A DNA stretch of 64,000 nt. Origin: Lytechinus pictus. Its lineage: Eukaryota. Position 1 is the stretch's first letter. Each line of letters opens with the position of its first letter. The position numbers and the translations under genes were made by a program. This document shows, piece by piece, positions 28,154 through 54,089 of the stretch. The notes below the pieces were generated by a model. That model did no database searches, had not been told where the DNA came from, and saw only the letters and a list, made by a program, of their open reading frames with translations. Location: contig NC_087249.1 of NCBI RefSeq assembly GCF_037042905.1, positions 41,478,001 to 41,542,000 of the forward strand, given 5' to 3'.

Positions 28154-28279
28154 AGAGTTTCTCTCAAATGCAATCCTTTGTCATCAGTTCCTAAATATGT
28201 AAAAGTCAAATTCAAATAAGGCCAAGTCTGATCTCTTGATTGGGAAGAAGAGCAATGAGCGCTGTTGATCTCTTCAAAA

Positions 28280-29015
28280 AGGATAGATAAAGAATAGATG
28301 TCACAAATGTCTCGCGAAATAATGAGCTCACTGAATACTGCAGAGAATAATTACCTGTTGAAATGTTCAGGTGGTTGATTTGGTTCGCGCAACATGCGTT
28401 TCAGAACTTGCAAATAGTTATCTGCGGGAAAGCCAGAAAATTGTCAACTGGTCCAAATTGCCTAACATCATCAGCTAAATGTATGACAGCATGGATATTA
28501 TAAATTAGCATCTCCTTTACAAACATATCTCCAAAGTTTCTTGAAAACACAATCAGCAATTCCTCCGCATACGTCACATATTTTATTGACAAAGATGGAC
28601 TGCTCAGAATTGTCATGCGGACATGCAAGAGAGAGAAATTTCCAAAAATCTGATCTGACAAAGTGCCTTTCAGGGCAACCATACCTGTATAGATCAAAAA
28701 TGTTCTAAACTCTGTTGCCTTCCATCTATCAATCTCAGCAAGAGATCTCTCTTTTCTTGAAAATTCACTTGGTATAACAGCTTTAAACTGAAGCAAGCTT
28801 CTGGAAATAGCATTGACATTTCCCGTCCAATTCGTGTCTGTAGAGGTCCACGTATCCAGACAAGAATCATTTTCCTGACAATACCTAAACATACATTATG
28901 CATATAATCTATTGGAAATTGACTGACCATTCCTACATGCAGTTGGGTCAATACACTTGTATCGTGATGGTGTTCTTGGTACACTTCTTGGTACACTTTA
29001 TGAAAGCACAGGCTG
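28280..29015 (-). pseudogene. EnSpm/CACTA-type transposase fragment, copy 1
   Basis: FPIDYMHNVCLG, IPSEFSRKERSL, WKATEFR, YNIHAVIHLADDV; frameshifted. Confidence 0.85.
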
Positions 29016-29109
29016 TTATAGGTCGCCTGTTTTAGGCAAGTCAAAATGAAAGAAAAAAAAAAAAATTAGGATTCTTGCATGCACATATCTTGGTCTTCTT
29101 CAAACATGT

Positions 29110-29332
29110 ATGGTACCTGTATGACAGTTTTCTCAGTTTGTGTTTGTGTTTTGCAAGTGGACGCTTGTGATCGGGAGAAAGTTTAATGTAACCGTTGATG
29201 ACGTTGACGATGCATTTGCATATGGCATCTACAAGTTCCTTGTCGGCTGTTTTTAGTAATGCCTTTCACTGATGCTGGCACAGTGGACCAGGGTCTTGAG
29301 AAGAACCGCGTGGGTTTTGATGCGGCCGGACA
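29110..29332 (-). pseudogene. Polinton/Maverick small basic conserved gene fragment
   Basis: SGRIKTHAVLLK...ADKELVDAICKCIVNVINGYIKLSPDHKRPLAKHKHKLRKL, resembling the ICECxLNxLxGN protein found next to the Polinton ATPase; second copy at about 34850-35071. Confidence 0.7.
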
Positions 29333-29369
29333 ACTTTCAAGAATAACGTTACTCCGAGATGAAGTTTTC

Positions 29370-29880
29370 ATTTGGAGGTCGCTGTACTGCGTCTCTCCTG
29401 GAAAGATGTCAGTTCTCAGACGAAAGGAATCGGGAGTGTCTGGTTTTAAATTGATAAAAAAGGTAACGATACTTGTCTTTGGAGGCATAAGTGTAGGCCT
29501 CTCGAAAGTACCTTACATGTCCTGGTTAGTGGTTACATTAGCAAAACAAGTAATATGCATTTTATCTCTACAATTTTTATAAATAAACAGTAATATTGAG
29601 TGTTGAGGGATATTACCGCTGACTCTTTTCCCCTATGAAACAAATATTGACTGATATAGATTGTACTGGCGTTTCTGTGATGACACCCCTTGGTAAACAG
29701 AGCCGCAACTTTTTTGTTATCACCCGCAGTGTCCATCAGGTCATCGATGCTGAAAAAAAAGGTTTTGTATCAGGGCTTTTTGTATTGTCAGTATATTCGT
29801 AAAAATCTTCTGGCAAATTTTCATGAAACTCAATATTTGGAACGGTTTTCAAAATGGTGACATGACACTAGACGAAATAT
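29370..29880 (-). pseudogene. Polinton/Maverick A32-like packaging ATPase, C-terminal part
   Basis: IEFHENLP, Walker B IDDLM, FTKGCHHRNASTIYISQYLF, ISLNTQY, INLKPDTPDSFRLRTDIFPGE; Walker A missing; second copy at about 35110-35620. Confidence 0.88.
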
Positions 29881-29884
29881 CCTT

Positions 29885-32800
29885 CACATCTCTTTTTTGT
29901 TTGTCAAAATGGAAGAAGCTTGACGCTCCTTCCATGCGCATGTCCAGATCTTCTTCGAACATACACTTGGTGTTATACACCTTATTCAATTGGTCAAAAA
30001 TATCTTTGACATTTAATCTGGCTAGGGCGGCTTCGAAGAATTGATGTATCTGTTCATCCCTTGTCAGCCATTGACATTCGGGGTGGTTTCGCTGCCCACC
30101 ATATTCATTTATGCATCCTATGCAGTTCTCATATACAACTTCATTGACTTAATTCGACAACGCTTTTACTGATAATATAAGTGGGCCTGTTGCTATGTTC
30201 AATCTTACCGGAATAGGCCTACTATCGGTATGCTCTGTGACATCCTGCATGTCCACTATCTGTTTTGGGCAAGTCAAAATTCAAGTTCTCTGGACCATTC
30301 TTCCGAGCGATAACATTTCTTTCAACTTTGACTTCACATGGGATTTTACATCTCTTTTTTGTTTGTCAAAATGGAAGAAGCTCGACGCTCCTTCCACGCA
30401 CATGTCCTGATCTTCTTCGAACATACACTTGGTGTTATACACCTTATTCAATTGGTCCAAAAAATCTTTGACATTTAATCTGGCTAGGGCGGCTTCGAAG
30501 AATTTATCTATCTGTTCATCCCTTGTCAGCCATTGACATTCGGGGTGGTCTCGCTGCCCACCATATTCATTTATGCATCCTATGCAGTTCTCATATACAA
30601 CTTCATTGACTTAATTCGACAACGCTTTTACTGCCATTATAACTGGGCCTGTTGCTATGTTCAATCTTACCGGAATAGTCATACTATTGATATGCTCGGT
30701 GATATCGGTCATGTCTGAGTTCTCTGGACCATTATTCCGAGCTATTACATTTCTTTCCATTTTGACTTCACATGGAATTTTACATCTCTTTTTTGTTTGT
30801 CAAAATGGAAGAAGCTCGACGCTCCTTCGACGCACAAGTCCTGATCTTCTTCGAACATACACTTGGTGTTATAGACCTTATTCAATTGGTCCAAAAAATC
30901 TTTGACATTTAATCTGGCTAGGGCGGCTTCGAAGAATTGATGTACAGGTATCTGTTCATCCCTTGTCAGCCATTGACATTCGGGGTGGTCTCGCTGCCCA
31001 CCATATTCATTTATGCATCCTATGTAGTTCTCATATGCAACTTCATTGACTTAATTCGACAACGCTTTTACTGATAACATAAGTGGGCCTGTTGCTATGT
31101 TCAATCTTACCGGAATAGGCCTACTATCGGTATGCTCAGTGACATCCTGCATGTCCACTATCTGTTTTGGGCAAGTCAAAAGTTAAGTTCTCTGGACCAT
31201 TCTTCCGAGCTATTACATTTCTTTCCATTTTGACTTCACATGGGATTTTACATCTCTTTTTTGTTTGTCAAAATGGAAGAAGCTCGACGCTCCTTCGACG
31301 CACATGTCCTGATCTTCTTCGAACATACACTTGGTGTTATACACCTTATTCAATTGGTCCAAAAAATCTTTGACATTTAATCTGGCTAGGGCGGCTTCGA
31401 AGAATTTATCTATCTGTTCATCCCTTGTCAGCCATTGACATTCGGGGTGGTTTCGCTGCCCACCATATTCATTTATGCATCCTATGCAGTTCTCATATAC
31501 AACTTCATTGACTTAATTCGACAACGCTTTTACTGATAATATAAGTGGGCCTGTTGCTATGTTCAATCTTACCGGAATAGGCCTACTATCGGTATGCTCT
31601 GTGACATCCTGCATGTCCACTATCTGTTTTGGGCAAGTCAAAATTCAAGTTCTCTGGACCATTCTTCCGAGCGATAACATTTCTTTCAACTTTGACTTCA
31701 CATGGGATTTTACATCTCTTTTTTGTTTGTCAAAATGGAAGAAGCTCGACGCTCCTTCCACGCACATGTCCTGATCTTCTTCGCACATACACTTGGTGTT
31801 ATACACGTTATTCAATTGGTCAAAAAAATCTTTGACATTTAATCTGGCTAGGGCGGCTTCGAAGAATTTATCTATCTGTTCATCCCTTGTCAGCCATTGA
31901 CATTCGGGGTGGTCTCGCTGCCCACCATATTCATTTATGCATCCTATGCAGTTCTCATATACAACTTCATTGACTTAATTCGACAACGCTTTTACTGCCA
32001 TTATAACTGGGCCTGTTGCTATGTTCAATCTTACCGGAATAGTCATACTATTGATATGCTCGGTGATATCGGTCATGTCTGAGTTCTCTGGACCATTATT
32101 CCGAGCTATTACATTTCTTTCCATTTTGACTTCACATGGGATTTTACATCTCTTTTTTGTTTGTCAAAATGGAAGAAGCTCAACGCTCCTTCGACGCACA
32201 TGTCCTGATCTTCTTCGAACATACACTTGGTGTTATACACCTTATTCAATTGGTCCAAAAAATCTTTGACATTTAATCTGGCTAGGGCGGCTTCGAAGAA
32301 TTGATGTATCTGTTCATGAGTTCATCCCTTGTCAGCCATTGACATTCGGGGTGGTCTCGCTGCCCACCATATCCATTTATGCATCCTATGCAGTTCTCAT
32401 ATGCAACTTCATTGACTTAATTCGACAACGCTTTTACTGATAACATAAGTGGGCCTGTTGCTATGTTCAATCTTACCGGAATAGGCCTACTATCGGTATG
32501 CTCAGTGACATCCTGCATGTCCACTATCTGTTTTGGGCAAGTCAAAAGTTAAGTTCTCTGGACCATTCTTCCGAGCTATTACATTTCTTTCCATTTTGAC
32601 TTCACATGGGATTTTACATCTCTTTTTTGTTTGTCAAAATGGAAGAAGCTCGACGCTCCTTCGACGCACATGTCCTGATCTTCTTCGAACATACACTTGG
32701 TGTTATACACCTTATTCAATTGGTCCAAAAAATCTTTGACATTTAATCTGGCTAGGGCGGCTTCGAAGAATTTATCTATCTGTTCATCCCTTGTCAGCCA

Positions 32801-33145
32801 TTGACATTCGGGGTGGTCTCGCTGCCCACCATATTCATTTATGCATCCTATGCAGTTCTCATATACAACTTCATTGACTTAATTCGACAACACTTTTACT
32901 GCCATTATAACTGGGCCTGTTGCTATGTTCAATCTTACCGGAATAGGCCTACTATTGATATGCTCGGTGATATCGGTCATGTCTGAGTTCTCTGGACCAT
33001 CATTCCGAGCTATTACATTTCTTTCCATTTTGACTTCACATGGGATTTTACATCTCTTTTTTGTTTGTCAAAATGGAAGAAGCTCAACGCTCCTTCCATG
33101 CACATGTCCTGATCTTCTTCGAACATACACTTGGTGTTATACATA
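29885..33145 (-). repeat. Tandem array (462/434/468-470-bp units) of a pseudogenised Polinton-like CxxC..H..C gene
   Basis: Anchor ATTTAATCTGGCTAGG at 30011, 30473, 30907, 31375, 31837, 32271 and 32741; minus strand ENCIGCINEYGGQRDHPEC. Confidence 0.9.
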
Positions 33146-33894
33146 TTATTGAATTGGTCATCTCCACTTCGTTATTGCCCTTTTCCGCCTCCCCCATGTC
33201 CTCTTCTTCCTCCTCCATTTCATAGTCTAAGCGACGGCGTATTGCAGGAAAAAGATATTTGATGAATTTGTCTCCGTCATCATTATCGTCATCCGAAATG
33301 GCAACTATTTGTGGGGTTGGTGGTGGTTGTCTCGATGTGGCGCCTATCCTTGGCTCTTCGTCAAGTTTAGCTACCACTGGTCTCCCACATGGCGTAGTAT
33401 GGAGCATGTTGTCTTTGAAGACGGTGGCAGCCAGCTACCACAGGGGCTTGTGGGGGTGACGCATCATCATCACTCACGATAATCAGTTTGGGTGTTTTGG
33501 CGATGCAGGAGCAGGTTCTGCCGTTCGAGAGATAGAAGCTGCGACGTTCTACTCCTCCATCTCCTTGACCACGTTCTGGATACGAAAAAGAGGAAATGGG
33601 TAGTTTTTTGAATTTGTCTATGTCATCATTATTGCCATCCACAAAGTAGCCAAGCCGTCTAACATGAGTTGAGGTGTCCAGAGCGAAGGCAGAGAGGAGA
33701 GTGATGATGTGGCAGAGATAAGTTGTTTTTTTACCAGATTAGGTAATTGGCAAAGCCGATCTCCTAATATCTATAGTTAAGAAAATAGGAAAGATTGTGT
33801 CCTACCTTAATACTTGTTTGCCAGAGTAGAAAGTGATCAACCGCTCAGATATACTGCACAAATCCCACAAAATATGTTTACACTTTACAATTTT

Positions 33895-34750
33895 AAAAAG
33901 GATAGATAAAGAATAGATGTCACAAATGTCTCGCGAAACAATGAGCTCACTGAATACTGCAGAGAATAATTACCTGTTGAAATGTTCAGGTGGTTGATTT
34001 GGTTCGCGCAACATGCGTTTCAGAACTTGCAAATAGTTGTCTGCGGGAAAGCCAGAAAATTGTCAACTGGTCCAAATTGCCTAACATAATCAGCTAAATG
34101 TATGACAGCATGGATATTATAAATTAGCATCTACTTTCCAAACATATCTCCAAAGTTTCTTGAAAACACAATCAGCAATTCCTCCGCATACGTCACATAT
34201 TTTATTGACAAAGATGGACTGCTCAGAATTGTCATGCGGACATGCAAGAGAGAGAAATTTCGAAAAATCTGATCTGACAAAGTGCCTTTCAGGGCAACCA
34301 TACCTGTATAGATCAAAAATGTTCTAAACTCTGTTGCCTTCCATCTATCAATCTCAGCAAGAGATCTCTCTTTTCTTGAAAATTCACTTGGTATAACAGC
34401 TTTAAACTGAGCAAGCTTCTGGAAATAGCATTGACATTTCCCGTCCAATTTGTGTCTGTAGAGGTCCACGTATCCAGACAAGAATCATTTTCCTGACAAT
34501 ACCTAAACATACATTATGCATATAATCTATTGGAAATTGACTGACCATTCCTACATGCAGTTGGGTCAATACACTTGTATCGTGATGGTGTTCTTTGTTT
34601 TCTTGGATAAGAAATCCATCATCGATTCTCGTGTCCACTGTCTGGGAATGTCATACGATGCTCGATATACAACCCCTCTTAGGTAGGGTACACTTATCAC
34701 AGCCATAATAGCCACTGTGACCCTTGGTACACTTTATGAAAGCACAGGCT
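33895..34750 (-). pseudogene. EnSpm/CACTA-type transposase fragment, copy 2
   Basis: As copy 1, plus AFIKCTKGHSGYYGCDKC. Confidence 0.85.
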
Positions 34751-37700
34751 GTTATAGGTCGCCTGTTTTAGGCAAGTCAAAATGAAAGAAAAAAAAAAAA
34801 ATTAGGATTCTTGCATGCACATATCTTGGTCTTCTTCAAACATGTATGGTACCTGTATGACAGTTTTCTCAGTTTGTGTTTGTGTTTTGCAAGTGGACGC
34901 TTGTGATCGGGAGAAAGTTTAATGTAACCGTTGATGACGTTGACGATGCATTTGCATATGGCATCTACGAGTTCCTTGTCGGCTGTTTTTAGTAATGCCT
35001 TTCACTGACTGCTGGCACAGTGGGCCATGGTCTTGAGAAGAACATGCGTGGGTGTTGATGCGGCAGGACAACTTTCAAGAATAACATTGCTCCGAGGTGA
35101 AGTGTTCATTTGAAGGTCGCTGTACTGCGTCTCTCCTGGAAAGATGTCAGTTTTCAGACGAAAGGAATCGGGAGTGTCTGGTTTTAAATTGATAAAAAAG
35201 GTAACGATACTTGTCTTTGGAGACATAAGTGTAGGCCTCTCGAAAGTACCTTACATGTCCTGGTTAGTGGTTACATTAGCAAAACAAGTAATATGCATTT
35301 TATCTCTACAATTTTTATAAATAAACAGTAATATTGAGTGTTGAGGGATATTACCCTTCACTCTTTTCCCCTATGAAACAAATATTGACTGATATAGATT
35401 GTACTGGCGTTTCTGTGATGACACCCCTTGGTAAACAGAGCCGCAACTTTTTTATTATCACCCGCAGTGTCCATCAGGTCATCGATGCTGAAAAAAAAGG
35501 TTTTGTATCAGGGCTTTTTGTATTGTCAGTATATTCGTAAAAATCTTCTGGCAAATTTTCATGAAACTCAATATTTGGAACGGTTTTCAAAATGGTGACA
35601 TGACACCAGAGGAAATATCCTTCACATCTCTTTTTTGTTTGTCAAAATGGAAGAAGCTCGACGCTCCTTCCATGCGCATGTCCAGATCTTCTTCGAACAT
35701 ACACTTGGTGTTATACACCTTATTCAATTGGTCAAAAAAATCTTTGACATTTAATCTGGCTAGGGCGGCTTCGAAGAATTGATCTATCTGTTCATCCCTT
35801 GGCAGCCATAGACATTCAGGGTGGTCTCGCTGCCCACCATATTCATTTATGCATCCTATGCAGTTCTCATATACAACTTCATTGACTTAATTCGACAACG
35901 CTTTTACTGATAATATAAGTGGGCCTGTTGCTATGTACAATCTTACCGGAATAGGCCTACTATCGGTATGCTCAGTGACATCCTGCATGTCCACTATCTG
36001 TTTTGGGCAAGTCAAAATTCAAGTTCTCTGGACCATTCTTCCGAGCTATTACATTTCTTTCAACTTTGACTTCACATGGGATTTTACATCTCTTTTTTGT
36101 TTGTCAAAATGGAAGAAGCTCGACGCTCCTTCCACGCACATGTCCTGATCTTCTTCGAACATACACTTGGTGTTATACACCTTATTCAATTGGTCAAAAA
36201 TATCTTTGACATTTAATCTGGCTAGGGCGGCTTCGAAGAATTTATCTATCTGTTCATCCCTTGTCAGCCATTGACATTCGGTGTGGTCTCGCTGCCCACC
36301 ATATTCATTTATGCATCCTATGCAGTTCTCATATACAACTTCATTGACTTAATTCGACAACGCTTTTACTGCCATTATAACTGGGCCTGTTGCTATGTTC
36401 AATCTTACCGGAATAGGCCTACTATTGATATGCTCGGTGATATCGGTCATGTCTGAGTTCTCTGGACCATTCTTCCGAGCTATTACATTTCTTTCCATTT
36501 TGACTTCACATGGGATTTTACATCTCTTTTTTGTTTGTCAAAATGGAAGAAGCTCGACGCTCCTTCCACGCACATGTCCTGATCTTCTTCGAACATACAC
36601 TTGGTGTTATACACCTTATTCAATTGGTCAAAAAAATCTTTGACATTTAATCTGGCTAGGGCGGCTTCGAAGAATTGATGTATCTGTTCATCCCTTGTCA
36701 GCCATTGACATTCGGGGTGGTCTCGCTGCCCACCATATTCATTTATGCATCCTATGCAGTTCTCATATACAACTTCATTGACTTAATTCGACAACGCTTT
36801 TACTGATAATATAAGTGGGCCTGTTGCTATGTTCAATCTTACCGGAATAGGCCTACTATCGGTATGCTCAGTGACATCCTGCATGTCCACTATCTGTTTT
36901 GGGCAAGTCAAAATTTAAGTTCTCTGGACCATTCTTCCGAGCTATTACATTTCTTTCAACTTTGACATCACATGGGATTTTACATCTCTTTTTTGTTTGT
37001 CAAAATGGAAGAAGCTCGACGCTCCTTCCACGCACATGTCCTGATCTTCTTCGAACATACACTTGGTGTTATACACCTTATTCAATTGGTCAAAAAAATC
37101 TCTGACATTTAATCTGGCTAGGGCGGCTTCGAAGAATTGATGTATCTGTTCATCCCTTGTCAGCCATTGACATTCGGGGTGGTCTCGCTGCCCACCATAT
37201 TCATTTATGCATCCTATGCAGTTCTCATATACAACTTCATTGACTTAATTCGACAACGCTTTTACTGATAATATAAGTGGGCCTGTTGCTATGTTCAATC
37301 TTACCTGAATAGGCCTACTATTGATATGCTCGGTGATATCGGTCATGTCTGAGTACTCTGGACCATTATTCCGAGCTATTACATTTCTTTCCATTTTGAC
37401 TTCACATGGGATTTTACATCTCTTTTTTGTTTGTCAAAATGGAAGAAGCTCGACGCTCCTTCCATGCACATGTCCTGATCTTCTTCGAACATACACTTGG
37501 TGTTATACACATTATTGAATTGGTCATCTCCACTTCGTTATTGCCCTTTTCCGCCTCACCCATGTCCTCTTCTTCCTCCTCCATTTCATAGTCTAAGCGA
37601 CGGCGTATTGCAGGAAAAAGATATTTGATGAATTTGTCTCTGTCATCATTATAGTCATCCGAAATGGCAAATATTTTTTGGGTTGGTGGTGGTTGTCTCG

Positions 37701-37980
37701 ATGTGGCGCCTATCCTTGGCTCTTCGTCAAGTTTAGCTACTACTGGTCTCCCACATGGCGTAGTATGGACCATGACAGCATGTTGTCTTTGAAGACGGTG
37801 GCAGCCAGCTACCACAGGGGCTTGTGGGGGTGACGCATCATCGTCACTCATGATAAACAGTTCGGGTGTTTTGGCGATGCAGGAGCAGGTTCTGCCTTTC
37901 GAGAGATAGAAGCTGCGACGTTCTGCTCCTCCATCTCCTTGACCACGTTCTGGATACGAAAAAGAGGAAATGGGTAGTTT
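33895..37980 (-). repeat. Segmental duplicate of 28276-33605 (EnSpm, Polinton ATPase, array, SDDD protein)
   Basis: Same order and near-identical sequence; shorter array (anchors 35749, 36211, 36645, 37107). Confidence 0.92.
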
Positions 37981-38046
37981 ATTTTTCTTTATTCGAAATA
38001 CATTTTTTTTGTAATCATTTGTATCATCATTTTTAGGACACTTCAT
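37414..38046 (-). pseudogene. Low-complexity acidic ORF with SDDD motifs (probably Polinton accessory)
   Basis: 210-aa ORF; same sequence as 33145-33600 and the 266-bp array. Confidence 0.45.
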
Positions 38047-38219
38047 TTTTGGGGGGTTGTTTATCTAGTTTTTTTTATCAAATGCTTTTAACAAAATTCA
38101 CAGAAAAATGCAAACTATAGGAACCAAAATAAGTTATGATGTTATTGTTGTAGTGCAAACTTATTTCTTACATTGATTAATTCCCGGACATATTTACTTA
38201 TGTCAAGTTTGGCCTGCAC

Positions 38220-38410
38220 CAAATGCCATTAATTTTCTGTCAAATTGATCCCCTTCTGTCCGGGAAGCATTATATTAGTTCCTTTCAATTTGTAGTACTC
38301 CCTAATATTGATGTAGGGGACACCCCTAAATTTCTTGACCACCGCAAAACGTTTAACCCCCAAGTGGAATGGTTTGGAGCCTTCCTCAAATTTGCACGAA
38401 TCTAATTTCT
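38220..38410 (-). pseudogene. PC4/Sub1-like ssDNA-binding protein (Polinton-type)
   Basis: FHLGVKRFAVVKKFRGVPYINIREYY...PGQKGINLT. Confidence 0.85.
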
Positions 38411-39099
38411 GACTAAAATGGCACCGCACCGTCAACCAATATTCGCTTTTTCTATCTTCCAATGCATAATAAAAAGACAACAACGTACAAACATTTATTA
38501 GGCATACATATTGAATATTTTTCTCTTGCATCTTAAACACTAAAACTAAATAAAACAAGAACAAATAATAATTTCACTTACCACCAATGTTTGGAATCCC
38601 GGAGGAGGCGATGGTGTGACCTTTCTCTGCTCAGTTGGTCAGAAAATCACAATAGACAACTTACTGCCCAACATGAATAAGAAATTATTTTGCAAGATCA
38701 ATACAACACCCACAACTCCATCCCCTTGTCCCAACCGTTTCCCAACCGTTCCCTGATCCACCAGTCTTTTTAAAGGCCTACATCTGTTGAGTTGATGCCA
38801 TTGAACGAGAGGGGGTGGTGGTTGATCTCCTTTTCCTCCTTTTAGCCACTTTCATCAATTATCTGTGTGTTTTTTTTGGGGGGGCCTGGGACTTCAGGTT
38901 CCATATTTCAATCTTCATAAGTAGAAGAATGAAAAGGTAAATGTCCGAAATACCTTTCCATTCCCGTAATTTAGATTTAGTCCTCTGTGCCATTTTATTC
39001 TCTGAATCATAGTACTGTTCTTCTAATTTGGACTTTACAGTTATAGGGTGTCTTATGTGGGCAAGTCAAAATGAAAAAAACCGCAGGATTTTTGCATGC

Positions 39100-40066
39100 A
39101 AAAAGAATAGATGTCACAAATATCTCGCGAAATAATGAGCTCACTGAATACTGCAGAAAATAATTACCTGTTCAAATGTTCAGGTAATTGATTTGGTTTG
39201 TGCAATATGCATTTCAGAACTTGCAAATAGTTCTCTAAGCGAAAGCCAGAAAATTGTCAACTGTTCCAAATTGCTTCACATCATCAGCTAAATGTATGAC
39301 AGCATGGATATTATGAATTAGCATCTCCTTCCCAAACATATCTCCAAAGTTTCTTGAAAACACAATCAGCAATTCCTCCGCATATGTCACATATTTTATT
39401 GACAAAGATGGACTGCTCGGGCTGACATGCAAGAGGGAGAAATTTCCATAAATCTCATCCGACAAAGTGCCTCTCAGGGCAAACATACCTTTATAGAACA
39501 AGAATGTTCTAAACTCTGTTGCCTTCCATCTTTTACTGCCATTATAACTAGGCCTGTTGCTATGTTCAATCTTACTGGAATAGGCCTACTATCGGTATGC
39601 CCGGTGACATCGGTCATGTCCGAGTCCTTTGGTTCCTGCATGTCCACTATCTGTTTTGGGCAAGTCAAAATTCAAGTTCTCTGGACCATTATTCCGAGCT
39701 ATTACATTTCTTTCAAATTTGACTTCACTTGGGATTTTACATCTCTTTTTTGTTAGGCAAAATGGAAGAAGCTTGGCGCTCCTTCCATGCACATGTCCTG
39801 ATCTTCTTCGAACATACACTTGGTGTTATACACCTTATTCAATTGGTCAAAAAAAATCTTTGACATTTAATCTGGCTAGGGCGGCTTCGAAGAATTGATG
39901 TATCTGTTCATCCCTTGTCAGCCATTGACATTCGGGGTGGTCTCGCTGCCCACCATATTCATTTATGCATCCTATGCAGTTCTCATATACAACTTCATTG
40001 ACTTAATTCGTTAACGCTTTTACTGCCATTATAACTGGGCCTGTTGCTATGTTCAATCCTACTGGA
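39100..40066 (-). pseudogene. Third, more diverged EnSpm fragment fused directly to the Polinton-like array unit
   Basis: HNIHAVIHLADDVKQFG; junction to the array sequence at about 39530. Confidence 0.8.
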
Positions 40067-40929
40067 AACGTTAAAACCTATAACTGTGATAATATATTCA
40101 TCGTGGCAGCCTTGCTTAAATATGTCAAGCAGCTTTTGAGCTGCCGTTTCATGAGAAAACTCTGATTTCTACCAGCCTACTGGCATTGAGTTGAAGGCGT
40201 TTAAGGAAATCTTAGGGCTTCTCCTGTTTGTCCTGAACCATGCCCATAAATTCTTGCAACAACAGGTTGTAATTCTGCACCCTCCCATATATGCTATCCA
40301 AGAAAGAGAGCAAATCTATTAAAGGCGGTGGCAGTTGATGCAACCTGCTTCGCAAAGTCCTTGGCAGGCAGGACAAGTCTCCCAATCGACTTCACCCTGC
40401 TTTACCAGAAAACAGGCCAAGTCGGGGCAGACGAGACTGAGAGAACCACTCGCACCAAGTGACTTCGAATAAGCTGGTCCAACTGTTCTCTAGTTAACCC
40501 AGACTCACTCAGGAAAGCACTTAATGTGTCAGTGGTAGGCATGGCAGGAGGAGGTGAATCTTCCTTCACTTCAAAAGACGAGCTAAGAAGATTGTCACTC
40601 TCTTGTGCCATGAATATTATAGAAAACAAATAATAAACAGAATTCTATTCAATTATCTTACCCTAACAAATAAAAAGGACTGTGAATACTGAGCAGAAGT
40701 AAATGTAACCAGGAAGATGTTAAATCTTTACTATACTTTACAAATGCAAATAAACAATATAATACTTAAAATAAAACATCACATAAAAAATCAACATGTA
40801 TAAAATATGAAAATACAGTTTTTTTTAATTGCACACTAACCTATCCAAATAATAGACTAGTCCAGTCTACTATAGAGGTGTGTGCAAAGTATGACAAAGA
40901 CAAAAGGACAAAGAAGGTGTCTGGGGGGT

Positions 40930-41192
40930 CTAGAGCACAAAGGCCCATTCAACTTGAAACTCTGAACATTCAGTGTCTAGCTCAGACAGGTTAATGAAAA
41001 AAAAAAAAGTGCAATCAGTGGGTCTACCTATGATTATTAACACATACACTGAAGCTCCAGTGTATGTGATTTTAACATTAACACTGAATATATAAAATAA
41101 TATTATGTAGTACACCAAAGGGGTGCTACAACTGAATTAACATTAACACTGTATATCAAAAAGAATATTAGGAATTACACCAAAGGGGTGCT
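40930..41192 (-). mobile_element. LTR-like terminus remnant
   Basis: TACACCAAAGGGGTGCTACA (TGTAGCACC.. on minus strand) shared with 50450-50809. Confidence 0.45.
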
Positions 41193-41207
41193 AGAGCAGG
41201 AGAAAGA

Positions 41208-42965
41208 TTTTCGATGAATTTGTCTATGTCATCGTTATTGCCATCCGAAATGACAACTATTTTTTGGGATGGTGGTTGTCTCGATGCAGCGCCTATCCTT
41301 GGCTCTTCGTCAAGTTTAGCTACCACTGGTCTCCCACATGGCGTAGTATGGACCATGACAGCATGTTGTCTTTGAAGACGGTGGCGGCCAGCTACCACAA
41401 TGGCTCGTGGGGGTGACGCATCATCATCACTCACGATAATCAGTTTGGGTGTTTTGGCGATGCAGGTTCAGGTTCTTCGATGAATTTGTCTATGTCATCA
41501 TTATTGCCATCCGAAATGACAACTATTTTTTGGGATGGTGGTTGTCTCGATGCAGCGCCTATCCTTGGCTCTTCGTCAAGTTTAGCTACCACTGGTCTCC
41601 CACATGGCGTAGTATGGACCATGACAGCATGTTGTCTTTGAAGACGGTGGCGGCCAGCTACCACAATGGCTCGTGGGGGTGACGCATCATCATCACTCAC
41701 GATAATCAGTTTGGGTGTTTTGGCGATGCAGGTTCAGGTTCTTCGATGAATTTGTCTATGTCATCATTATTGCCATCCGAAATGACAACTATTTTTTGGG
41801 ATGGTGGTTGTCTCGATGCAGCGCCTATCCTTGGCTCTTCGTCAAGTTTAGCTACCACTGGTCTCCCACATGGCGTAGTATGGACCATGACAGCATGTTG
41901 TCTTTGAAGACGGTGGCGGCCAGCTACCACAATGGCTCGTGGGGGTGACGCATCATCATCACTCACGATAATCAGTTTGGGTGTTTTGGCGATGCAGGTT
42001 CAGGTTCTACAATGAATTTTTTGGGATGGTGGTTGTCTTGATGCAGCGCCTATCCTTGGCTCTTCATCAAGCTTGGACCATGACAGCATGTTGTCTTTGA
42101 AGACGGTGGCGGTCAGCTACCACAATGGCTCGTGGGGGTGACGCATCATCATCACTCACGATAATCAGTTTGGGTGTTTTGGCGATGCAGGTTCAGGTTC
42201 TACGATGAATTTGTCTATGTCATCGTTATTGCCATCCGAAATGACAACTATTTTTTGGGATGGTGGTTGTTTAGCTACCACTGGTCTCCCACACGGCGTA
42301 GTATGGACCATGACAGCATGTTGTCTTTGAAGACGGTGGCGGCCAGCTACCACAATGGCTCGTGGGGGTGACGCATCATCATCACTCACGATAATCAGTT
42401 TGGGTGTTTTGGTGATGCAGGTTCAGGTTCTTCGATGAATTTGTCTATGTCATCATTATTGCCATCCGAAATGACAACTATTTTTTGGGATGGTGGTTGT
42501 CTCGATGCAGCGCCTATCCTTGGCTCTTCGTCAAGTTTAGCTACCACTGGTCTCCCACACGGCGTAGTATGGACCATGACAGCATGTTGTCTTTGAAGAC
42601 GGTGGCGGCCAGCTACCACAATGGCTCGTGGGGGTGACGCATCATCATCCCTCACGATAATCAGTTTGGGTGTTTTGGCGATGCAGGTTCAGGTTCTTCG
42701 ATGAATTTGTCTATGTCATCATTATTGCCATCCGAAATGACAACTATTTTTTGGGATGGTGGTTGTCTCGATGCAGCGCCTATCCTTGGCACTTCGTCAA
42801 GTTTAGCTACCACTGGTCTCCCACATGGCGTAGTATGGACCATGACAGCATGTTGTCTTTGAAGACGGTGGCGGCCAGCTACCACAATGGCTCGTGGGGG
42901 TGACGCATCATCATCACTCACGATAATCAGTTTGGGTGTTTTGGCGATGCAGGTTCAGGTTCTAC
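41208..42965 (-). repeat. Tandem array of about 7 x 266-bp units (two shortened to 193 and 230 bp)
   Basis: Unit ORF starts at 41434, 41700, 41966, 42159, 42389, 42655 and 42921. Confidence 0.95.
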
Positions 42966-43728
42966 CGTTTTAGAGAGAGAAGCTGCGCCGTTCAATTCCG
43001 CATCCATCTCGTTGACCACGTTCTGGATACAAAACAGAGGAAATTGGTAATTAGATATAATTTTTTTGTAATCGTTGTTATTTGTATCATTATCAGATTA
43101 TTGGGGGTTGCTGTTTATCTAGTTTTCTTTTTATCAAATGCTTTAAACCAAAATTTACAGAAAAATACAAGCTATAGGAAACAAAATAAGTTATGATGTT
43201 ATTGTTATTTCTTTCCATTCCTTCACTTCATCCTCCGAGACAGCTATGCCAGCAGCTCCGGCCTGATGTACTCCTAAAATAGGCTCATCCTCTGGTGTTG
43301 CACCAGTAGAGGGGATGTCACTCCTCACAGACAACTTTTTTGCCTTTTTTGGTGATTTCTTTTGCTTATGGGCGACATGTTGCACCAAAACTATTCACCA
43401 GTAACGAAGTGGAGTATTATGTATATGTCAAGTTGATCAGAAGTAGAAGATCCAGGCTATCAGAATATCTCGTGGAGTGGTTTAAAAGGGTGTACTGTTT
43501 AGCTGGCTGCCATTTTGTATTTTTTTTTAGATGGAGGTGCGTCTCCTCTGTAGGCCTCTGTTTCGCGTCGATTCCTTTGTTCGGAAGAGATCCCAGCAAC
43601 GTTTCTGGCTACGACCCATGTCCACAATTTAGCACAACTTTCACACCAAACGATGAAACAACAACAGCACAACAATGATTTAAATTCCAATAGAGTCGAT
43701 GTCTCAGTCATCACGAACCAGGCTATGA

Positions 43729-44073: not shown

Positions 44074-44649
44074 CTATGAGCGATCTAAAAAATAACGTCA
44101 TGTTTGGCCTCCCCGTGTCGACTGCTAATCTAGCTTATTCTGGATTTTTACCTCTGAACTGAACTGTCGAAAGTCATGAGAGGATCGGGTCGATGTTCTA
44201 CCAAGGGTAGAGGTAAAGCAACGTGAACGGCAGCCTGGCCGCCTAGCCAGTGTGCCTTCTGCAAGAATTATGGAGAAAGCGAGATGTACAAAACATGCCT
44301 ATACAATATTCATTATACATGTAGCTCCTCAAAGGGTCCCTTGACCCTCAACTTCTTTCATATTCGGAAAGAGGATGAATTTTAGACATGATTTCATGTC
44401 TTTTTTACCCTCAATGAATGCTGAAATTAAAATCCCTTTATTCATATTCTTTCCACACAACTTTAATTCTCATTTCCCATTTTTCAAGATTTATCAACAC
44501 ATTCTTTTCAGAATAAGAGTTCAGTTTTCATCATGATGATCATATTGATCTGAATGAATATGGTGATCACATTCATGACCATGAAAGTCAGAGACAGATC
44601 ACCTAATTCGTCCTCGTGACAAATTAAAATTCTAGTTACCTAAATTTTT

Positions 44650-45351
44650 CTTGGATTTGTTCTTTTTCTTGCACAATGCATTCATTTGTATTTCCTTTTC
44701 CAATGTTACGTAGTGAGGCCTTTTTTGGTTACCTTCATGTAGCACTCGTGGGTCGGCTCATTCACACACTCCTTGCATATCGTGCAAAAGACTTGCGAAC
44801 AATCGTGGTCTTTCCTATATCCCGGAAGGACACCGACGTTGAACACATGCTCGCATTTTGGGCATTTGTTTTTGGTGTTACAAGCTGTTTCACCTTTGAA
44901 CTGTGCCGCGCTATGCAATCGAAAACACTGCTTTGTGAGGAATACCATGTTATAGTCTGCGCAGGTGCAAAGTGAGCATTTGGCGAGATCGTTACGGTCA
45001 CAATCGTTTGATGGCTATCGGGACAAATTTTGCAGCATTCATTCTGTAATACGGATTGTGTACTTCCACTGCACTTTTTGCATGCATTTCTCACGCATAA
45101 AAAGCAGCCATGTTTCTTATCACACTGTAGTGACCTGATTTGGTTCAGATACAGGTTAATGTTTTTGTCAGTGGGAGGACCCGCATAAATTCTAGAGTGG
45201 CCTCTTACGACCTCAATAAAATTACCAATCCATACTCTGGGTGTAAAACGGCTTGGAATTTACTGTAATGGCTCAAATCCTCTTCTCCTACTTGAACCCC
45301 ATCCCAGCACATGGAGTTTTGAAGCCTCTCATTTATTAGCCCTGCAGTAGG
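44650..45351 (-). pseudogene. Polinton/Maverick pPolB N-terminal Cys-rich region, copy 1
   Basis: KFQAVLHPEY, IYAGPPTDKNINLYL, GHYSVIRNMAAF, KCPKC..HDCSQVFCTICKECV..HECYMK. Confidence 0.75.
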
Positions 45352-45410
45352 CTTTCTTTTTTATTATTATAAAATTGATTCCTGTTCGATACTAGATTAT
45401 GACAGCAGTT

Positions 45411-46702
45411 TTACTTTGTTGGACATGTAAGAACATTATGTCCAGAGCCATGGCAGTTAGAGCACTTGTACGATCTAGAAGAAACCTTCACCAAATGCTT
45501 GAGCTTTGGGCTTGTGTAAAGCCAGTGAACCCCAATAATATCTCTGAGAGAAGCAAGAGTATTACTCTTTCTAGAGAAGTTCCGGCTCAAGTCTCTGAAG
45601 AGTTTATTTGCAGCCTCGTTGCCTTCTCCACTCAGAGCACTAATTGTCCCAGGGCCAAGAGGGTCTTGCAATACCTCCTGCACATGTTCAATAACCGTAT
45701 GAAGGTAATTGGGCCAGGATGCATATATATGTGAAATTACGTTGCAGGAGATCTGCCATCTGGATGGCATTGGCTTTGTACTCTGCGACATCAGCTGACC
45801 TTGGATGATGGGCCCTGTATACTGTACGGAGCTTAGTGAAAAGAACCATTACATCACGAAGATGATTCCTTCTCTCTTCATCAGGGATGATGCTAAGTAC
45901 TGAAGACATGTTATCAGGATCAAAAAGATGACGAGCATAATTACCTGGCATCATCAGGTTGGGTGCAAGTCCAAGCGTGGCTCTCATGTGGTCATTGAAC
46001 CGTTTCTCCCCATCCTCAAACATCGCCTTAACATCACGAGATATCTCCCATGTGTACGTACGTGCGACTTCACAAATGATCAATTTTTTTTAAAAAGATC
46101 CAATATTGATATCGGCATGAGTGGCATCTAATAATTTGTGATGAGGTTCTGATTTGAGAATTGGGTAGTCCTTTACTCCTTTTGCCACACTAGCCAAGTC
46201 ACTTTGGCTCAAATCGTCTGGATTTGTTTGGACATAGCTAGCAATGTCTACATTCTCTTCCAAGGTGCGGGTGATCTTAAATGTGCCGACATGTGAACGC
46301 GCCGTCTCTCTTGTCGCATGACAAAGAGTGCAGAGGAACTTTGACCCGCTTCCTTGGAGACCTCCCTGTGATCTGTCTAATTTCTCATCTATCATTGAGT
46401 TGAAAAAGATCAACCGATGTCTCCTCCACCATTCATTTGCGTGAACGCGCTGTGCTCTATACAGTCAAGCATTGTCACTCCACACGCTACATGATTGTCA
46501 TCTGCAATTGCCTCCAAATGGGCCTAGTAATTGTGATGGAGTTCGGGTTGTCGGGTTCATAGATGATAGCTTTACCCCCATCCTCCAACTGTACCTCGCA
46601 TTTGATAATGGCAAAGGCAGCTCAAAAGGCTTTATTTGGCAGTAGCCTAGCACTCGCTTCCTTTATGATGCTGATGTCTCCCATACCATCCGCACCATCC
46701 TT
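45411..46702 (-). pseudogene. RAG1L: RAG1-like (RAG1L/ProtoRAG-type) transposase catalytic core plus CTT1 tail, disrupted
   Basis: KDGADGMGD (D600 equivalent, 46688-46690), PNS..RP, MIDEK (D708 equivalent, 46387-46389), GSGSKFLCTLC, LDATH, MMPGNYAR, WPNYLH..IEH, EGNEAANKLFR (E962 equivalent, 45615-45617), HWLYTS, CSNCHGSGHNVLTC. One stop and several frameshifts. Confidence 0.92.
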
Positions 46703-46735
46703 CCCAATCGGATTCAGAAACGTCGATTGCATGCG

Positions 46736-47600
46736 GCGCTATGCAATCGAAAACACTGCTTTGTGAGGAATACCATGTTATAGTCTGCGCAGGTGCAAGG
46801 TGAGCGAGATCGTTACGGTCACAATCGTTTGAATGGCTATCGGGACAAATTTTGCAGCATTCGTTCTGTAATACGGATTGTATACTTCCACTGCACTTTT
46901 TGCATACATTTCTCACGCATGAAAAGCAGCCATGTTTCTTATCACATTGTAGTGACCTGATTCGGTTCAGATACAGGTTAATGTTTTTGTCAGTGGGAGG
47001 ACCCGCATAAATCCTAGAGTGGCCTTTTACGACCTCAATAAAATTACCAATCTATACTCTGGGTGTAAAACGGCTTGGAATTTACTGTAATGGCTCAATC
47101 CTCTTCTACTTGTACCACTGCCAGCTCATGGAGTTTTGAAGCCTCTCAGTTTAGCCCTGCAGCAGGTTTACAATCACTGCAGAACCACACCTTATATTTA
47201 TGATCCTTGTTCACAAAGTCATGCAATGACCACTTCATTGGCAAAACACACACTTTTTCTGTTCCTTGGAAGAAGGGATGGTGATGATAGATGAATTTCG
47301 AAAACATGCTTTGTCATCGCGCAGCCCATCTTTTTTCTCACGTAGCCCACCCCCCCCCCCCCCCCCCCCGGTGGGGTTGATGACATGGTGGAAATGGATG
47401 GTGAAGCCAGGGTTCAATATAAATTCCTGGTTTCTGTTTAAAACTCTCTCAATGCGATCAAGAATAGCACTTACATGTATATCAAACTCACTAACGACGG
47501 CCCAAGGGAATGTGAGGGGGACGCTATGTAATTTAGCACCTCCCATACCGAAGTATGATTCCTAATGTTCCCAACTAAATCATACCATGATTCTCTTACG
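46736..47600 (-). pseudogene. Polinton/Maverick pPolB N-terminal region, copy 2
   Basis: AILDRIERVLNRNQEFIL..FTIHFHHVINPTGGG..SIITI; 46736-47166 duplicates 44908-45351. Confidence 0.78.
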
Positions 47601-48652
47601 TCGAAGCGTTTGGATATACGAGAATCTACAAAATGCCACCTCAACGTTTCTGAATCCGATTGGGAATTAGGACCAAGAGGCTCATAATTTTAGGGGGAAT
47701 CCACCGGTTCTACATTATTTTTCTTTTGTTTGCGTTTTCCCCTTTTTTGGAATTTGGCTTAAGAGGCTCATCACTCTTGGGGTTCCACAGGTTCTACTTT
47801 TTTTTTCCCTTTGCGTTCACCGCCACCTCCCCCCTTTCAAGAATTTTGATTGATTTCACCGCCACCTCTTTGTGGTGTCGGCAACCAAGGGAATGTGAGG
47901 GGGGACGCTATGTAATTTAGCACCTCCCATACCGAGGTATGATTCCTAATGTTCCCAACTAAATCATACCATGATTCTCTTACGTCGAAGCGTTTGGGTA
48001 TACGAGAATCTACAAAATGCCACCTCAACGTTTCTGAATCCGATTGGGAATTAGGACCAAGAGGCTCATAATTTTAGGGGGAATCCACCGGTTCTACATT
48101 ATTTTTCTTTTGTTTGCGTTTTCCCCTTTTTTGGAATTTGGCTTAAGAGGCTCATCACTCTTGGGGTTCCACAGGTTCTACTTTTTTTTTCCCTTTGCGT
48201 TCACCGCCACCTCCCCCCTTTCAAGAATTTTGATTGATTTCACCGCCACCTCTTTGTGGTGTCGGCAACCAAGGGAATGTGAGGGGGGACGCTATGTAAT
48301 TTAGCACCTCCCATACCGAGGTATGATTCCTAATGTTCCCAACTAAATCATACCATGATTCTCTTACGTCGAAGCGTTTGGATATACGAGAATCTACAAA
48401 ATGCCACCTCAACGTTTCTGAATCCGATTGGGAATTAGGACCAAGAGGCTCATAATTTTAGGGGGAGTCCACCGGTTCTACATTATTTTTCTTTTGTTTG
48501 CGTTTTCCCCTTTTTTGGAATTTGGCTTAAGAGGCTCATCACTCTTGGGGGATCCACAGGTTCTACTTTTTTTTCCCCTTTGCGTTCACCGCCACCTCCC
48601 CCCTTTCAAGAATTTGGATTGATTTCACCGCCACCTCTTTGTGGTGTCGGCA
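47503..48652 (-). repeat. Tandem repeat, 3 x 384 bp
   Basis: ORFs recur at 47660, 48044 and 48428. Confidence 0.95.
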
Positions 48653-49749
48653 GAGTCTTGTTGGGAACTTGAATATTGTATTCATCGTCTGATGAGAAAA
48701 TACAGTTGACGTGAGCAGTTGGGCCTTTTTTGTTATATTCTGATTTTATTATTGTTATTATTTATTCGGCATTTCAAAATACATAAATTACAGTACAATG
48801 CAAATTACATAAACAATAGGACATACGTGACATAATACAAAGGACCTGGAATAGAGATGAAGGGGCTGCCTGGGTTTGGAAAAGGTTAACTAAATTACCA
48901 TGACCCACAGGTCTTCCTTCCCACACCCCTTTACCTCCATCCAGGTCAGTATAAGAATGTAAAAAGAAACATATGAATTAAAAGTATACAACTGAAACTG
49001 GCAACAGTTAATTTGGCGAAACAGATGTAACATGGATCCATCAGCAATTATCATTTCCTGGACCTTCCTGATGAGATGGGGCAGGAATATCCAAATTGAT
49101 AGGAATATTGGCAGGCTCTGGGACTAAGGCGTTTGAACATGGATCATTGTGTTGTTTTGCCCGTTTTCTCCTTCGAAGTTTGTTTCTAAGATCCGATTTT
49201 GATTGAGGGGGAACTTGAATCTCTTCGTCATCCTCCGATGAGAAAATAAAGTTGAAGTGGGGACATGGGGGTTGTTTTGACACGTACTGATTTCCAGAAG
49301 ACTCTGCGTGATGAGAAGGGGTGGGGATGTCGCGATCGTTCAGGATATTGGTACGTTCTGGGACTGATGCATTTGAACTAAATTGAGTCTTGCCTAGTTA
49401 CGTTTTCCTGCTTTATTGGAGTATGGATTGATTTTCTTTCAGATCGGTCTCGTCAATGTTTTTTTCTTTTTTGGAATATGAATTTCGTCTTCTTCGTCTG
49501 ATGAGGTGAAAAAATTGATGTATTGAATTCTAGGCTCTGAGTGATGAGAAGCGGCGAGGATGTCTCGATGGTTAGAGACGTTTGATTGTTTTGCTATTCT
49601 TTTCGTTGTCTTATGTTTTTTAGACTTTGAGTTATCTCTTATTGGCACACGATGGCACTGCCTGTTATTCGGCATTGTGTGCAGAAGGCAGAGCCTCGAT
49701 AAATCATCATCCGACCAATTATCAATTTGATTTTTCTATGTTGGAGGCT

Positions 49750-50350
49750 TCAGGAGCACCATGGCTCGCATGGTTACCCCTATGACCCACATCTCTTACA
49801 GAATTCTCGACTATGCATTGCTCAACTCCTCCTCTAGGCTTCTGTTCATTTCGATGATGTCCATTGCTTCCACTAGCGATGTTGGCTCTTTCATCCCTAC
49901 TGTGATCGCTTAATGCTGGTCACTCAGCCCTTTCATAAAATGTCGAATGGCGATTGACTCTCTGGTAGCTGTGTCTGCTGTCAGGTAGCCTTTATTGGTC
50001 AAAGTTCGTAGGTCGGCTACATATATTCGGCAATCGATTCAGTCCTTTTCAGTTTTCTTGCCTCCAATTTTGCCAGGTATGATGCAGCAGGACGACGGTC
50101 TCTGAAGCGTCGCAGCAGACTAGTCATGAGCTCGTCATAGGTTAGTTCATTAAAACTTGGCAATTCGAATATATCTTCGGCCGCCTCTCCTTGTAGAGCC
50201 GATGCAAGCCTTATTCTTTTCTCTTCTGAGCTCCATCCACTCGAAAATGCAAGAGTCTCAAACTGATTTTTGAATGCAAGTAGTGACGATGTTCCATCAT
50301 ACGAGTTTTGCCATGGAAGTGGTATTGTAGTTTTCAGAATCCTCTCTGCT
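49750..50350 (-). pseudogene. Ty3/Gypsy-like gag fragment
   Basis: YDGTSSL..FE..A...GW..EEK...LASALQGEA, YDEL...L..RF, ESIAEY..DL, AIRHFMKGL. Confidence 0.8.
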
Positions 50351-52050: not shown

Positions 52051-53269
52051 TATAGTCAAGTCACTACACGTCCATCATGGGTGTCAACTTCATTGCCATA
52101 GGTCTAATCCAGAATTTCCTTCTGTGTGTCTTGATCAATCCCCAGCTCAATCAATTTCTGTTTGCAGTTCATCCTTCCATGTAACATGCAAAGAAGCCAA
52201 GAGGAAATCTTTATTTTATTTTTTCCTTTATTTTTTAGTTTATTTTATTCATTTTTTAATGCGCCGTTTCATGCGCCACTTCACGTGCCATATCACATGC
52301 CGATTATTGCTCTGTATAATGCGGCGTGCTTTTTACACTAAGCCTTTTCATGCGAGTACCTCGCCTGGCTCTTTGTATACTAATCTTCAATCAATCAATC
52401 TTATCACCATGTGTGGCTGCCGCTCTTTATCCTGGATAAGTGGACGGAGTTTCAAAGTCAGTACACTCCAACAGAAATATATTCACGAAAATGGCGTTGG
52501 CTTATGTTAAATGGTGCTTTATTTCATCATCCCAGATGAACCAAGATCGAGATAAAATACTGAAAATAAAACAGATACATATAAACATTTTGAGTTACAC
52601 ATTCAATCAACAAATGATTATACTCTACTTGTAATACTTAATTCTACATAACTTATATCTTGCTCTAAACTATTGACAGAAATACAGATATGAAATCTTA
52701 CCAATTGGAGGCTATAAGACAAGTACACCAGCAGTGAGAATCATCATGACAGTCGACTGGAGTTCGTCTCTCTCTCTTCTTTATAACACAAACTGAAGTC
52801 TCTTGGCTTTTTCAGTCTCTTTTTAAGGACTCTGATCAAACCAGAATGCACTAGACAGACTAATTAGAAATTAAGAGGAGCTAGTACTACTCAGCACTCA
52901 ACACCTTACAGACAAAGAACTTGATCGGCTATTCAAATCAGAACAATGAAGGTTGGACATTAGTCTAAAGACTTGGCTTTTCTCTGCCTACAGTTTTAAC
53001 ATATAACCAGCCCGATGGGAGTTTGTGTAGAAAAGGATTAAGAAAACCCAAAGTGCAAAATGAAACATTTTAAGTGGAATTTGAATTTAGACAACATATA
53101 TCGGACATAAATATATGCAGCCAAATATTACATAAATTTTCACTGCACACTGCTGCAGTGACACCATGTATGTAATTATGCGGGTAGAATTAGTCTTCGT
53201 CCAAAATGTACAGTGACTCGTTACATCATGCATTTCTTCTGTATTATCTTGTGGATGGCTGGGCTCTCA

Positions 53270-53450
53270 TTGCATAATGCTTCAAATTCTGCCGTGGTCA
53301 AAGTCACCCCCTTGTTGATGGGTTAGAACTTGCTGTTTTTCTCAAAGTAGTATAGTGGATGTCCACATGCACTTTATTGAGATACGTCTTGGCCACCACG
53401 TATTTCCGCCGCTTTTGCTTCAAGCTGATTGGACATTTGAAGAGAATTTC
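53270..53450 (-). pseudogene. Second, divergent PC4-like gene fragment
   Basis: RKYVVAKTYLNKVHVDI, frameshift, then PINKGVTLTTAEFEAL. Confidence 0.65.
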
Positions 53451-54089
53451 TGATTCCACGTCACCGTCTTTCTCCACGGGTTGTTGCGTCCATGCCACGC
53501 TTGTACCTGTCATGTCTGCAGGATTGTTGGTGATTGGATGTTTTCAGTTTTTTGGTTATACCCAAAATCATGGACAACACAAAAATTAACAAAAATGCTT
53601 CACACTGTCAACACACATCAAATCATCAGTGTCCTCACTGACGCAACGTATAGTTTACTTCTTGGTATCTCTTATAAGCAACATTTCCCACAACTTTATC
53701 AAACAATAGTACTTTAATTTGGTAGTTTGGTGTATATTCCCACTTCAATCAAAACCCAAATGTCAATCTTTCATTTCTTATCCCACCGCTGCTCACCAAA
53801 TGTTACGTAAATGGTTGAAGTGCTTGGAGTACAAAATAACACTGCACAAATTCATGTAGTTCAGAGTTACATGTATAATGAATTTCAACAAGAGTTCTTA
53901 TGTGTAGTATGATGTATAAGACCCTTGACATTAGTCATTAAGTTCTGACACTTTTTGCTTTTTGCATGATTAATGATCTTGTAGAAATAAGTACTTGGCC
54001 TTAAAATTTAATTCTTCTGAAATATTTTTCACCTATATTTAACTTTCTACCCCCACACTGAAAGTCACTGTCACCTTTGAAAAAAGAGA

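Follow-up and report, generated by a model that had tools for sequence, protein, structure and literature searches.

Echinoderms are described as carrying two lineages of RAG1L sequences, B1, which includes SpRAG1L, and B2, which is fragmented and multicopy (Morales Poole 2017, 10.1101/100735; here and below, papers are cited for the parts of their text that were accessible). The residue and tail features of RAG1L-B proteins are given in PMC10629977 and PMC7204232, and SpRAG1L has been described as TIR-less and possibly domesticated. The accessible text of two papers further states that no intact, transposition-capable RAGL element is known in echinoderms (PMC10629977, 2023) and that echinoid RAGL genes were found to have no TIRs around them (PMC9885083). 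PMC7204232 regards vertical descent as the main route of RAGL elements, and Polintons have been reported as gene carriers (10.1101/2022.07.12.499685). Short fold-back insertions and distant templated insertions have been described at DNA breaks (PMC11724301, PMC5728401). Here, we report on a RAG1L fragment that lies within the polymerase gene (pPolB) of a Polinton relic in Lytechinus pictus.

Extent and lineage of the RAG1L fragment

We analyzed a 64-kb stretch of an 812-Mb L. pictus assembly (G000:C5:41478001-41542000), hereafter called the window, whose own numbering is used below. The first-pass annotation, made from the letters alone, had placed a RAG1L core running from just before the first catalytic Asp to the stop at 45411..46702, and this holds on the minus strand by six-frame translation, tblastn, Pfam, structure matches, and tree: the fragment is a RAG1L-B catalytic core that starts with the Lys preceding the first catalytic Asp and ends at the stop after a CCGHC tail. 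Six-frame translation and tblastn against P0001, an intact RAG1L of the same genome, gave four colinear minus-strand pieces (46702-46517, 46517-46452, 46458-45697, and 45725-45423) that span P0001 residues 392-825 at 50-66% identity. The three ORF pieces tested all passed the cutoff of Pfam RAG1 (PF12940), with E values of 1e-15, 9e-12, and 4e-13, and amphioxus BbeRAG1L (6B40) was the best solved-structure match of two pieces (E 2e-22 and 5e-23). The Transib chain 6PQN (HzTransib-type) reached E 0.09 with one piece and was not among the matches listed for the other.

The annotation had read across one TGA and several frameshifts. The frameshifts stand, three in number, at ~46517, ~46455 (where about seven codons are lost), and ~45720, but there are two in-frame stops rather than one, TGA at 46622-46624 and TAA at 46090-46092. 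No activity is predicted for the product of the fragment. Two raw RNA runs, sampled at ~6%, gave 10 and 3 mapped reads with 0 over 45640-46719, from which silence does not follow.

All the motifs named at first sight, DGMGD, DEK, EGNE, the zinc ligands in CTLC and YLH..EH, WLYTS, and the C-terminal C-x2-C-x3-GH-x4-C, were recovered in the translation and alignment, and the tail reads CSNCHGSGHNVLTC. In mouse RAG1 numbering by alignment, D600, D708, and E962 are intact, as are the ligands C727, C730, H795, H937, and H942; the E662 column holds Asp. The proposed Ile 649, Met 848, and Ala 963 were borne out both by mapping onto mouse RAG1 via P0001 and against turtle RAG1 in a single alignment. 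The fragment combines the hydrophobic 649, hydrophobic 848, small 963, and CTT1 tail described for RAG1L-B. These features had been taken as an argument for a mobile, undomesticated copy, an argument that we had to abandon: they cannot tell mobile from domesticated because SpRAG1L (P0010) has V649/M848/A963 and the same CCGHC tail in our alignment, and because subgroup I Transibs have CTT1 as well (PMC9435367, accessible text).

Support for a mobile origin comes instead from the tree. In a careful tree of 16 rows and 439 columns, into which the window protein was entered with X at every break, it grouped with P0002 (support 100/100; 76% identity), and these two joined the protein of the C182 element described below and two starfish proteins (100/98). 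SpRAG1L, Diadema, and the protein of the C4 pair formed a separate group (100/99). All of these sequences made up one echinoderm clade (99/96), away from turtle RAG1, P. flava RAG1L-A, and the outgroups P0122 and P0135, which are only presumed to be Transib-like (the structure matches for P0122 list no Transib chain). The window protein is 42-76% identical to RAG1L-B proteins versus 23-28% to P0122 and P0135. A quick tree, with 37 of 50 rows kept (13 dropped as short or redundant) and the careful search unfinished, placed a broken copy on C9 as sister of the window RAG1L. As judged from sequence, the fragment is RAG1L-B and not Transib, and its lineage is likely B2, a lineage for which the tree holds no reference. 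The stops, frameshifts, tree, and structure scores together agree with the original reading of a dead RAG1L copy of a transposon lineage, and the suggested tree of the frameshift-corrected protein gave the expected RAG1L-B/echinoderm grouping.

The window copy also lacks the surroundings of a complete RAGL transposon (a convergent RAG2L, N-terminal domains, CAC-starting TIRs, and a 5-bp TSD), as had been noticed at the outset. Neither RAG2L nor a RAG1L N-terminal part was found elsewhere in the 64-kb window (best off-locus E 0.02), and a scan for a TIR/TSD pair around RAG1L gave 0 matches in the window; the identical scan recovers such ends at C182 and C4.

A search of the genome for an intact parent succeeded in part, in that it uncovered RAG1L-RAG2L elements bearing both TIRs and TSDs. 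A 13.57-kb RAG1L-RAG2L element is present at G000:C182:10626-24199 and C233:12609-26181; the two copies differ by one gap in 13577 bases and have different flanks. Their ends, CACAATGGCAAAT and CACAGTGGCAAAT, are RSS-like TIRs that have in common an AAC..ATAG-like motif after the heptamer, at 12 and 23 bases. The C182 copy is flanked by a perfect 5-bp TSD, CGGAG, and empty sites with one CGGAG occur at C10:2975892 and C292:16556. The C233 flanks form no TSD, one of them mapping to C20 and the other being a common repeat. The RAG1L-RAG2L pair on C4 (G000:C4:15668080-15687843; 19,764 bp) has perfect TIRs of 15 bp, CACATCGAACTTTTG, and a duplicated CTCAG; although it groups with SpRAG1L, it looks by sequence like a transposon rather than a TIR-less locus. 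This genome therefore holds TIR/TSD-flanked RAG1L-RAG2L elements, one of them with an empty allele, to be set beside the statements in the accessible text of PMC10629977 and PMC9885083. C182/C233 as the direct parent of the window copy is ruled out by 61% protein identity and by DNA matches that are short and only 69-71% identical. The nearest DNA relative is the scrambled C9 copy (73-86%), and no intact copy of the window's own RAG1L subfamily was found in this assembly.

The Polinton relic and the junctions

As a yardstick, we used an intact 17.2-kb Polinton at G000:C3:20662988-20680224, with TIRs of 646 bp and open frames for pPolB (1786 residues), integrase, capsid, protease, and ATPase (DNA_pol_B_2, rve, Peptidase_C5, and Pox_A32). 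The claim that RAG1L is joined to Polinton DNA proved correct, as both flanks are pPolB, 75-81% identical in nucleotides to and colinear with the C3 Polinton. By similarity to the latter, 44636..49859 (minus strand) is the broken N-terminal half of a Polinton pPolB that retains residues ~79-948 of 1786 and lacks the polymerase core; 384-bp tandem repeats occupy 47502-48652 within it. Similarity to the C3 Polinton also identifies two fragments of a packaging ATPase (29123-29863 and 34859-35601, within 29123..35602, minus strand) and a PC4 gene of the C3-type family at 53159..53555 (minus strand), the upper end of the recognizable relic. Between them, 29903..43048 (minus strand) contains tandemly amplified accessory genes and a PC4 (38232-38573) of a second Polinton family, at 75-86% nucleotide identity to G000:C16:4.55 Mb. 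The homology of pPolB, packaging ATPase, and accessory genes establishes the Polinton origin of the flanks.

A functional Polinton is not what remains, with no integrase, major or minor capsid, protease, polymerase core, or TIR of a Polinton in the 64-kb window and a single weak integrase-like match (23% identity, ~19 kb above) in the 10 kb below and 20 kb above it. The rearranged region covers 27.5-54 kb, of which 13804 of 26500 bases (about half) are internal direct repeat. It contains a second foreign cargo, three fragments of a CACTA/EnSpm-like transposase (28425-28978, 34044-34749, and 39238-39534, within 28273..39585, minus strand), each fused to ATPase or accessory DNA of the Polinton, along with which it was duplicated. 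Relatives of this piece carry PF13960 (DUF4218-type), which we take as its tie to CACTA/EnSpm. Beside the start of the pPolB relic, 50017-50445 is by eye what we assume to be a piece of a gag-like ORF; it has no Pfam match. Just below the relic, exons at 19456-27540 belong to a host gene that matches AMP-binding, PP-binding, and ACSF4 beta-propeller domains.

The RAG1L insert interrupts pPolB and is bracketed by a direct duplication of ~450 bp of it (a 93% repeat). By self-comparison and alignment with C3, the upper copy, R2, occupies 46732..47169 (minus strand; codons ~738-885 of C3 pPolB, frameshifted) and the lower copy, R1, occupies 44904..45354 (minus strand). R1 and R2 differ by 18 substitutions in 437 aligned bases. 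Compared with C3 pPolB, which at 75-81% identity, and 78-81% in this stretch, leaves single gap positions uncertain, both show frame changes at matching places and a stop at codon 746. As far as the sequences tell, the frameshifts and stop common to R1 and R2 mean that pPolB had very likely died before it was duplicated and RAG1L was captured; gene conversion between R1 and R2, with which the upper-copy letters in the lower flank of contig X5 (see below) would agree, is a possible alternative source of the shared disablements.

At the upper junction, read along the minus strand, the Polinton end (46736) is followed by a fold-back of ~12 nt, a 23-nt filler, and then the RAG1L Lys before the first catalytic motif. 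Sequence comparison identifies the former, 46724..46735 (plus strand), as a snap-back, an inverted copy of the adjoining Polinton end (10 nt exact, 46723-46732 versus 46741-46750). The filler, 46701..46723 (plus strand), compares as an exact inverted copy of pPolB 47644-47666, with tandem copies at 48028-48050 and 48412-48434, and it is the sole inverted match of >16 nt within the 26.5 kb of 27.5-54 kb. Such features resemble the scars expected of templated repair. The lower junction showed no templated filler. Here, the RAG1L stop is followed by a 56-nt AT-rich spacer (45355..45410, minus strand) with AATAAA and an A-rich run, which is likely the 3' flank of the donor; no match of >14 nt to it was found in 8 RAG1L regions or the C3 Polinton.

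A second RAG1L fragment in a Polinton relic

RAG1L was found at 11 places in the genome, which is a lower bound. The proposed search for further Polinton-RAG1L chimeras turned up one, at C2:26.7 Mb: this is the only one of the 10 other places with Polinton genes in the surrounding 30-90 kb, which makes 2 of 11 overall. The fragment is present twice (G000:C2:26718968-26720134 and 26739163-26740332, duplicated at 97.8%) in a scrambled relic of two Polinton families at C2:26.72-26.75 Mb. It is a C-terminal piece of ~85-125 residues (Pfam RAG1 E 7e-9), ~48% identical to the window piece and without DNA match to other copies. An ATPase fragment lies ~0.8 kb away from it and PC4 1 kb away, and internal repeat makes up 78% of the relic. 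Because the divergence between the C2 and window pieces far exceeds the 4% between the window flanks, the two captures would appear to be independent.

Grouping of 39 ATPase and 14 PC4 matches gave at least 23 Polinton loci. RAG1L was present in 2 of the 17 examined (20-80 kb each) and absent from the other 15. If Polintons are assumed to cover between 0.085% (23 loci of 30 kb) and 0.85% of the genome, a second overlap would arise by chance among 9 independent places with a probability of 0.008 to 0.074, with the reservation that repeat-rich regions may collect both kinds of DNA. Nor is capture limited to RAG, since the window also has its CACTA/EnSpm-like and gag-like pieces and a DDE_Tnp_4 piece lies beside a relic at C2:19.77.

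The first-pass annotation had raised the Polinton as a possible vehicle or trap for RAG-family sequence. The vehicle part is not supported for the window copy, whose pPolB is dead and whose Polinton is missing genes, but the C2 case lends some support to the trap. With fragments of two different RAG1L subfamilies in two Polinton relics of a genome whose RAGL transposons still move, RAG-family DNA might preferentially end up in Polintons undergoing rearrangement, and a capture in a live Polinton could let RAG1L travel between animals; we regard this proposition as doubtful. The window locus would be weightier should the C2 case not be due to chance, because RAGL passage is considered mainly vertical and Polintons are reported gene carriers (PMC7204232 and 10.1101/2022.07.12.499685, accessible text).

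Two further candidates were rejected. An 850-bp stretch common to the window (53939-54770) and the C2 relic is no link between them but a common repeat (40 of 1078 candidates were scored, all at >=88% over most of its length). The C9 RAG1L (G000:C9:18143048-18195719) is not another Polinton chimera, with no Polinton protein match in 90 kb; it is shredded into a ~4.1-kb tandem array beside a set of ORFs bearing DUF6570, presumably Helitron-like. Separately, G000:C14:9.87-9.90 Mb, PC4-bearing and 90% internal direct repeat, is another amplified Polinton-like relic.

Origin of the insert and comparison with known systems

We think it probable that the 1.3-kb RAG1L-B fragment was captured by template-switching DNA repair in the pPolB of a decayed, already dead Polinton. 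Events would have started at pPolB codon ~885, where the DNA broke or a fork stalled and the end folded back to copy ~12 nt of its own sequence. A switch to the opposite strand ~0.9 kb away would then have copied 23 nt, and a next switch would have led to RAG1L DNA for ~1.35 kb, until re-joining of pPolB ~450 bp upstream left the direct duplication behind. The order of the switches and the enzyme (Pol theta-like or break-induced replication) are our inference, and the donor would have been a RAG1L subfamily of which this assembly has yielded no intact copy. Repair capture is supported by the rearranged locus, the second foreign transposase fragment, the fillers at the upper junction, and the missing Polinton genes. 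Counting against it, the ends of the donor are not comparable, since the C9 copy, its nearest DNA kin, is itself scrambled; the lower junction has no filler, and its A-rich spacer fits an RNA template too; and a second RAG1L fragment in another Polinton relic is not easily put down to chance.

That last point would be met if Polintons were favored targets of transposition. A whole RAG1L-RAG2L transposon could have entered or adjoined the Polinton, after which rearrangement left the core re-joined to pPolB, and the genome does contain TIR/TSD-bearing RAGL elements, one of them polymorphic, just as the window locus is heavily rearranged. Yet no RAG2L, N-terminal part, or TIR/TSD pair has survived in the 64 kb, and at both ends the insert abuts one and the same pPolB segment, directly repeated over 450 bp, instead of a 5-bp TSD, so that we consider nested insertion followed by erosion unlikely. 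The lower junction bears on reverse transcription of a 5'-truncated RAG1L transcript into a pPolB break, as the insert is itself 5' truncated, co-oriented with pPolB, and ends 56 nt past the stop in AATAAA and an A-rich run. A clean poly(A) tail is missing, however, and usual retrotransposon target duplications are far shorter than 450 bp. The core is one exon in intact copies, which removes intron loss as a criterion. On balance, an RNA template is quite improbable.

The presence of RAG1L fragments in two Polinton relics within a single genome, together with the reported transfer of Maverick cargo (10.1101/2022.07.12.499685, accessible text), could also suggest that a live Polinton acquired RAG1L and carried it as in nematode Mavericks. 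The insert, though, disrupts a pPolB that was already frameshifted, the pPolB-RAG1L junction is single copy in a search of the assembly, and the 15 other Polinton loci examined have no RAG1L. The viral contigs gave no RAG1L relative (12 and 117 candidate stretches), 0 of 3 metagenome RAG1L loci hold Polinton genes (on contigs of just 3-5 kb), and the window fragment groups with echinoderm sequences. Neither this genome nor the viral contigs provided a complete element with such cargo in several copies or species, and carriage by a live Polinton is very unlikely for the window copy.

An assembly artefact at the RAG1L-Polinton junction, conceivable in so repeat-rich a region, is scarcely credible and largely refuted, given that contigs of two studies (X5 and X1) cover the insert. 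X5, from a second study, runs in one piece over 44908-46765 with 38 differences and 12 gap letters, covering the lower junction fully and reaching 30 bases into the upper Polinton flank, one base less than the 31 required for spanning it. Its length is close to one repeat period, and at 9 of the 15 differences listed for its lower flank it carries the upper-copy letter, hinting at unequal exchange or copy number variation. X1, from the other study, matches the region in pieces that show no differences, and the assembly may itself derive from it.

Seen as a single locus, this is a fossil in which a transposase of a known family ended up in a dead Polinton. No RAG1L-Polinton chimera appeared in the titles and abstract openings of the literature searched, which leaves subscription papers outside and supplements that may list RAGL copies. 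The systems compared here are likewise known from the accessible parts of their papers. Closest are the echinoderm RAG1L-B fossils and solitary "type II" sea urchin RAG1L (10.1101/100735; PMC9885083), which are similarly solitary, fragmentary, TIR-less cores apart from SpRAG1L; unlike those fossils as described, the window copy lies in the polymerase gene of a Polinton and is accompanied by templated fillers and a duplication of 450 bp. With ProtoRAG/BbeRAGL-B and other RAGL-B (6B40; PMC7204232, PMC10629977), it shares the catalytic and zinc residues, hydrophobic 649, Met 848, small 963, and CCGHC tail, but it differs from ProtoRAG/BbeRAGL-B in lacking RAG2L, the N-terminus, TIR, and 5-bp TSD, in its broken frame, and in the Asp of its E662 column. 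The templated and fold-back inserts reported at double-strand breaks (PMC11724301, PMC5728401) combine, as here, a short fold-back inversion with local and distant template copies at one junction; the window locus differs from them in being a germ line fossil, in the 1.35 kb of its foreign tract, and in its 450-bp duplication. The cargo genes of nematode Mavericks/Polintons (10.1101/2022.07.12.499685) are, like the window insert, foreign coding DNA inside a Polinton. Finally, Teratorn, a piggyBac-herpesvirus fusion (PMC10175614), also joins a DNA transposase to virus-like DNA, but it is a functional multicopy composite, whereas the window locus is dead and single copy.
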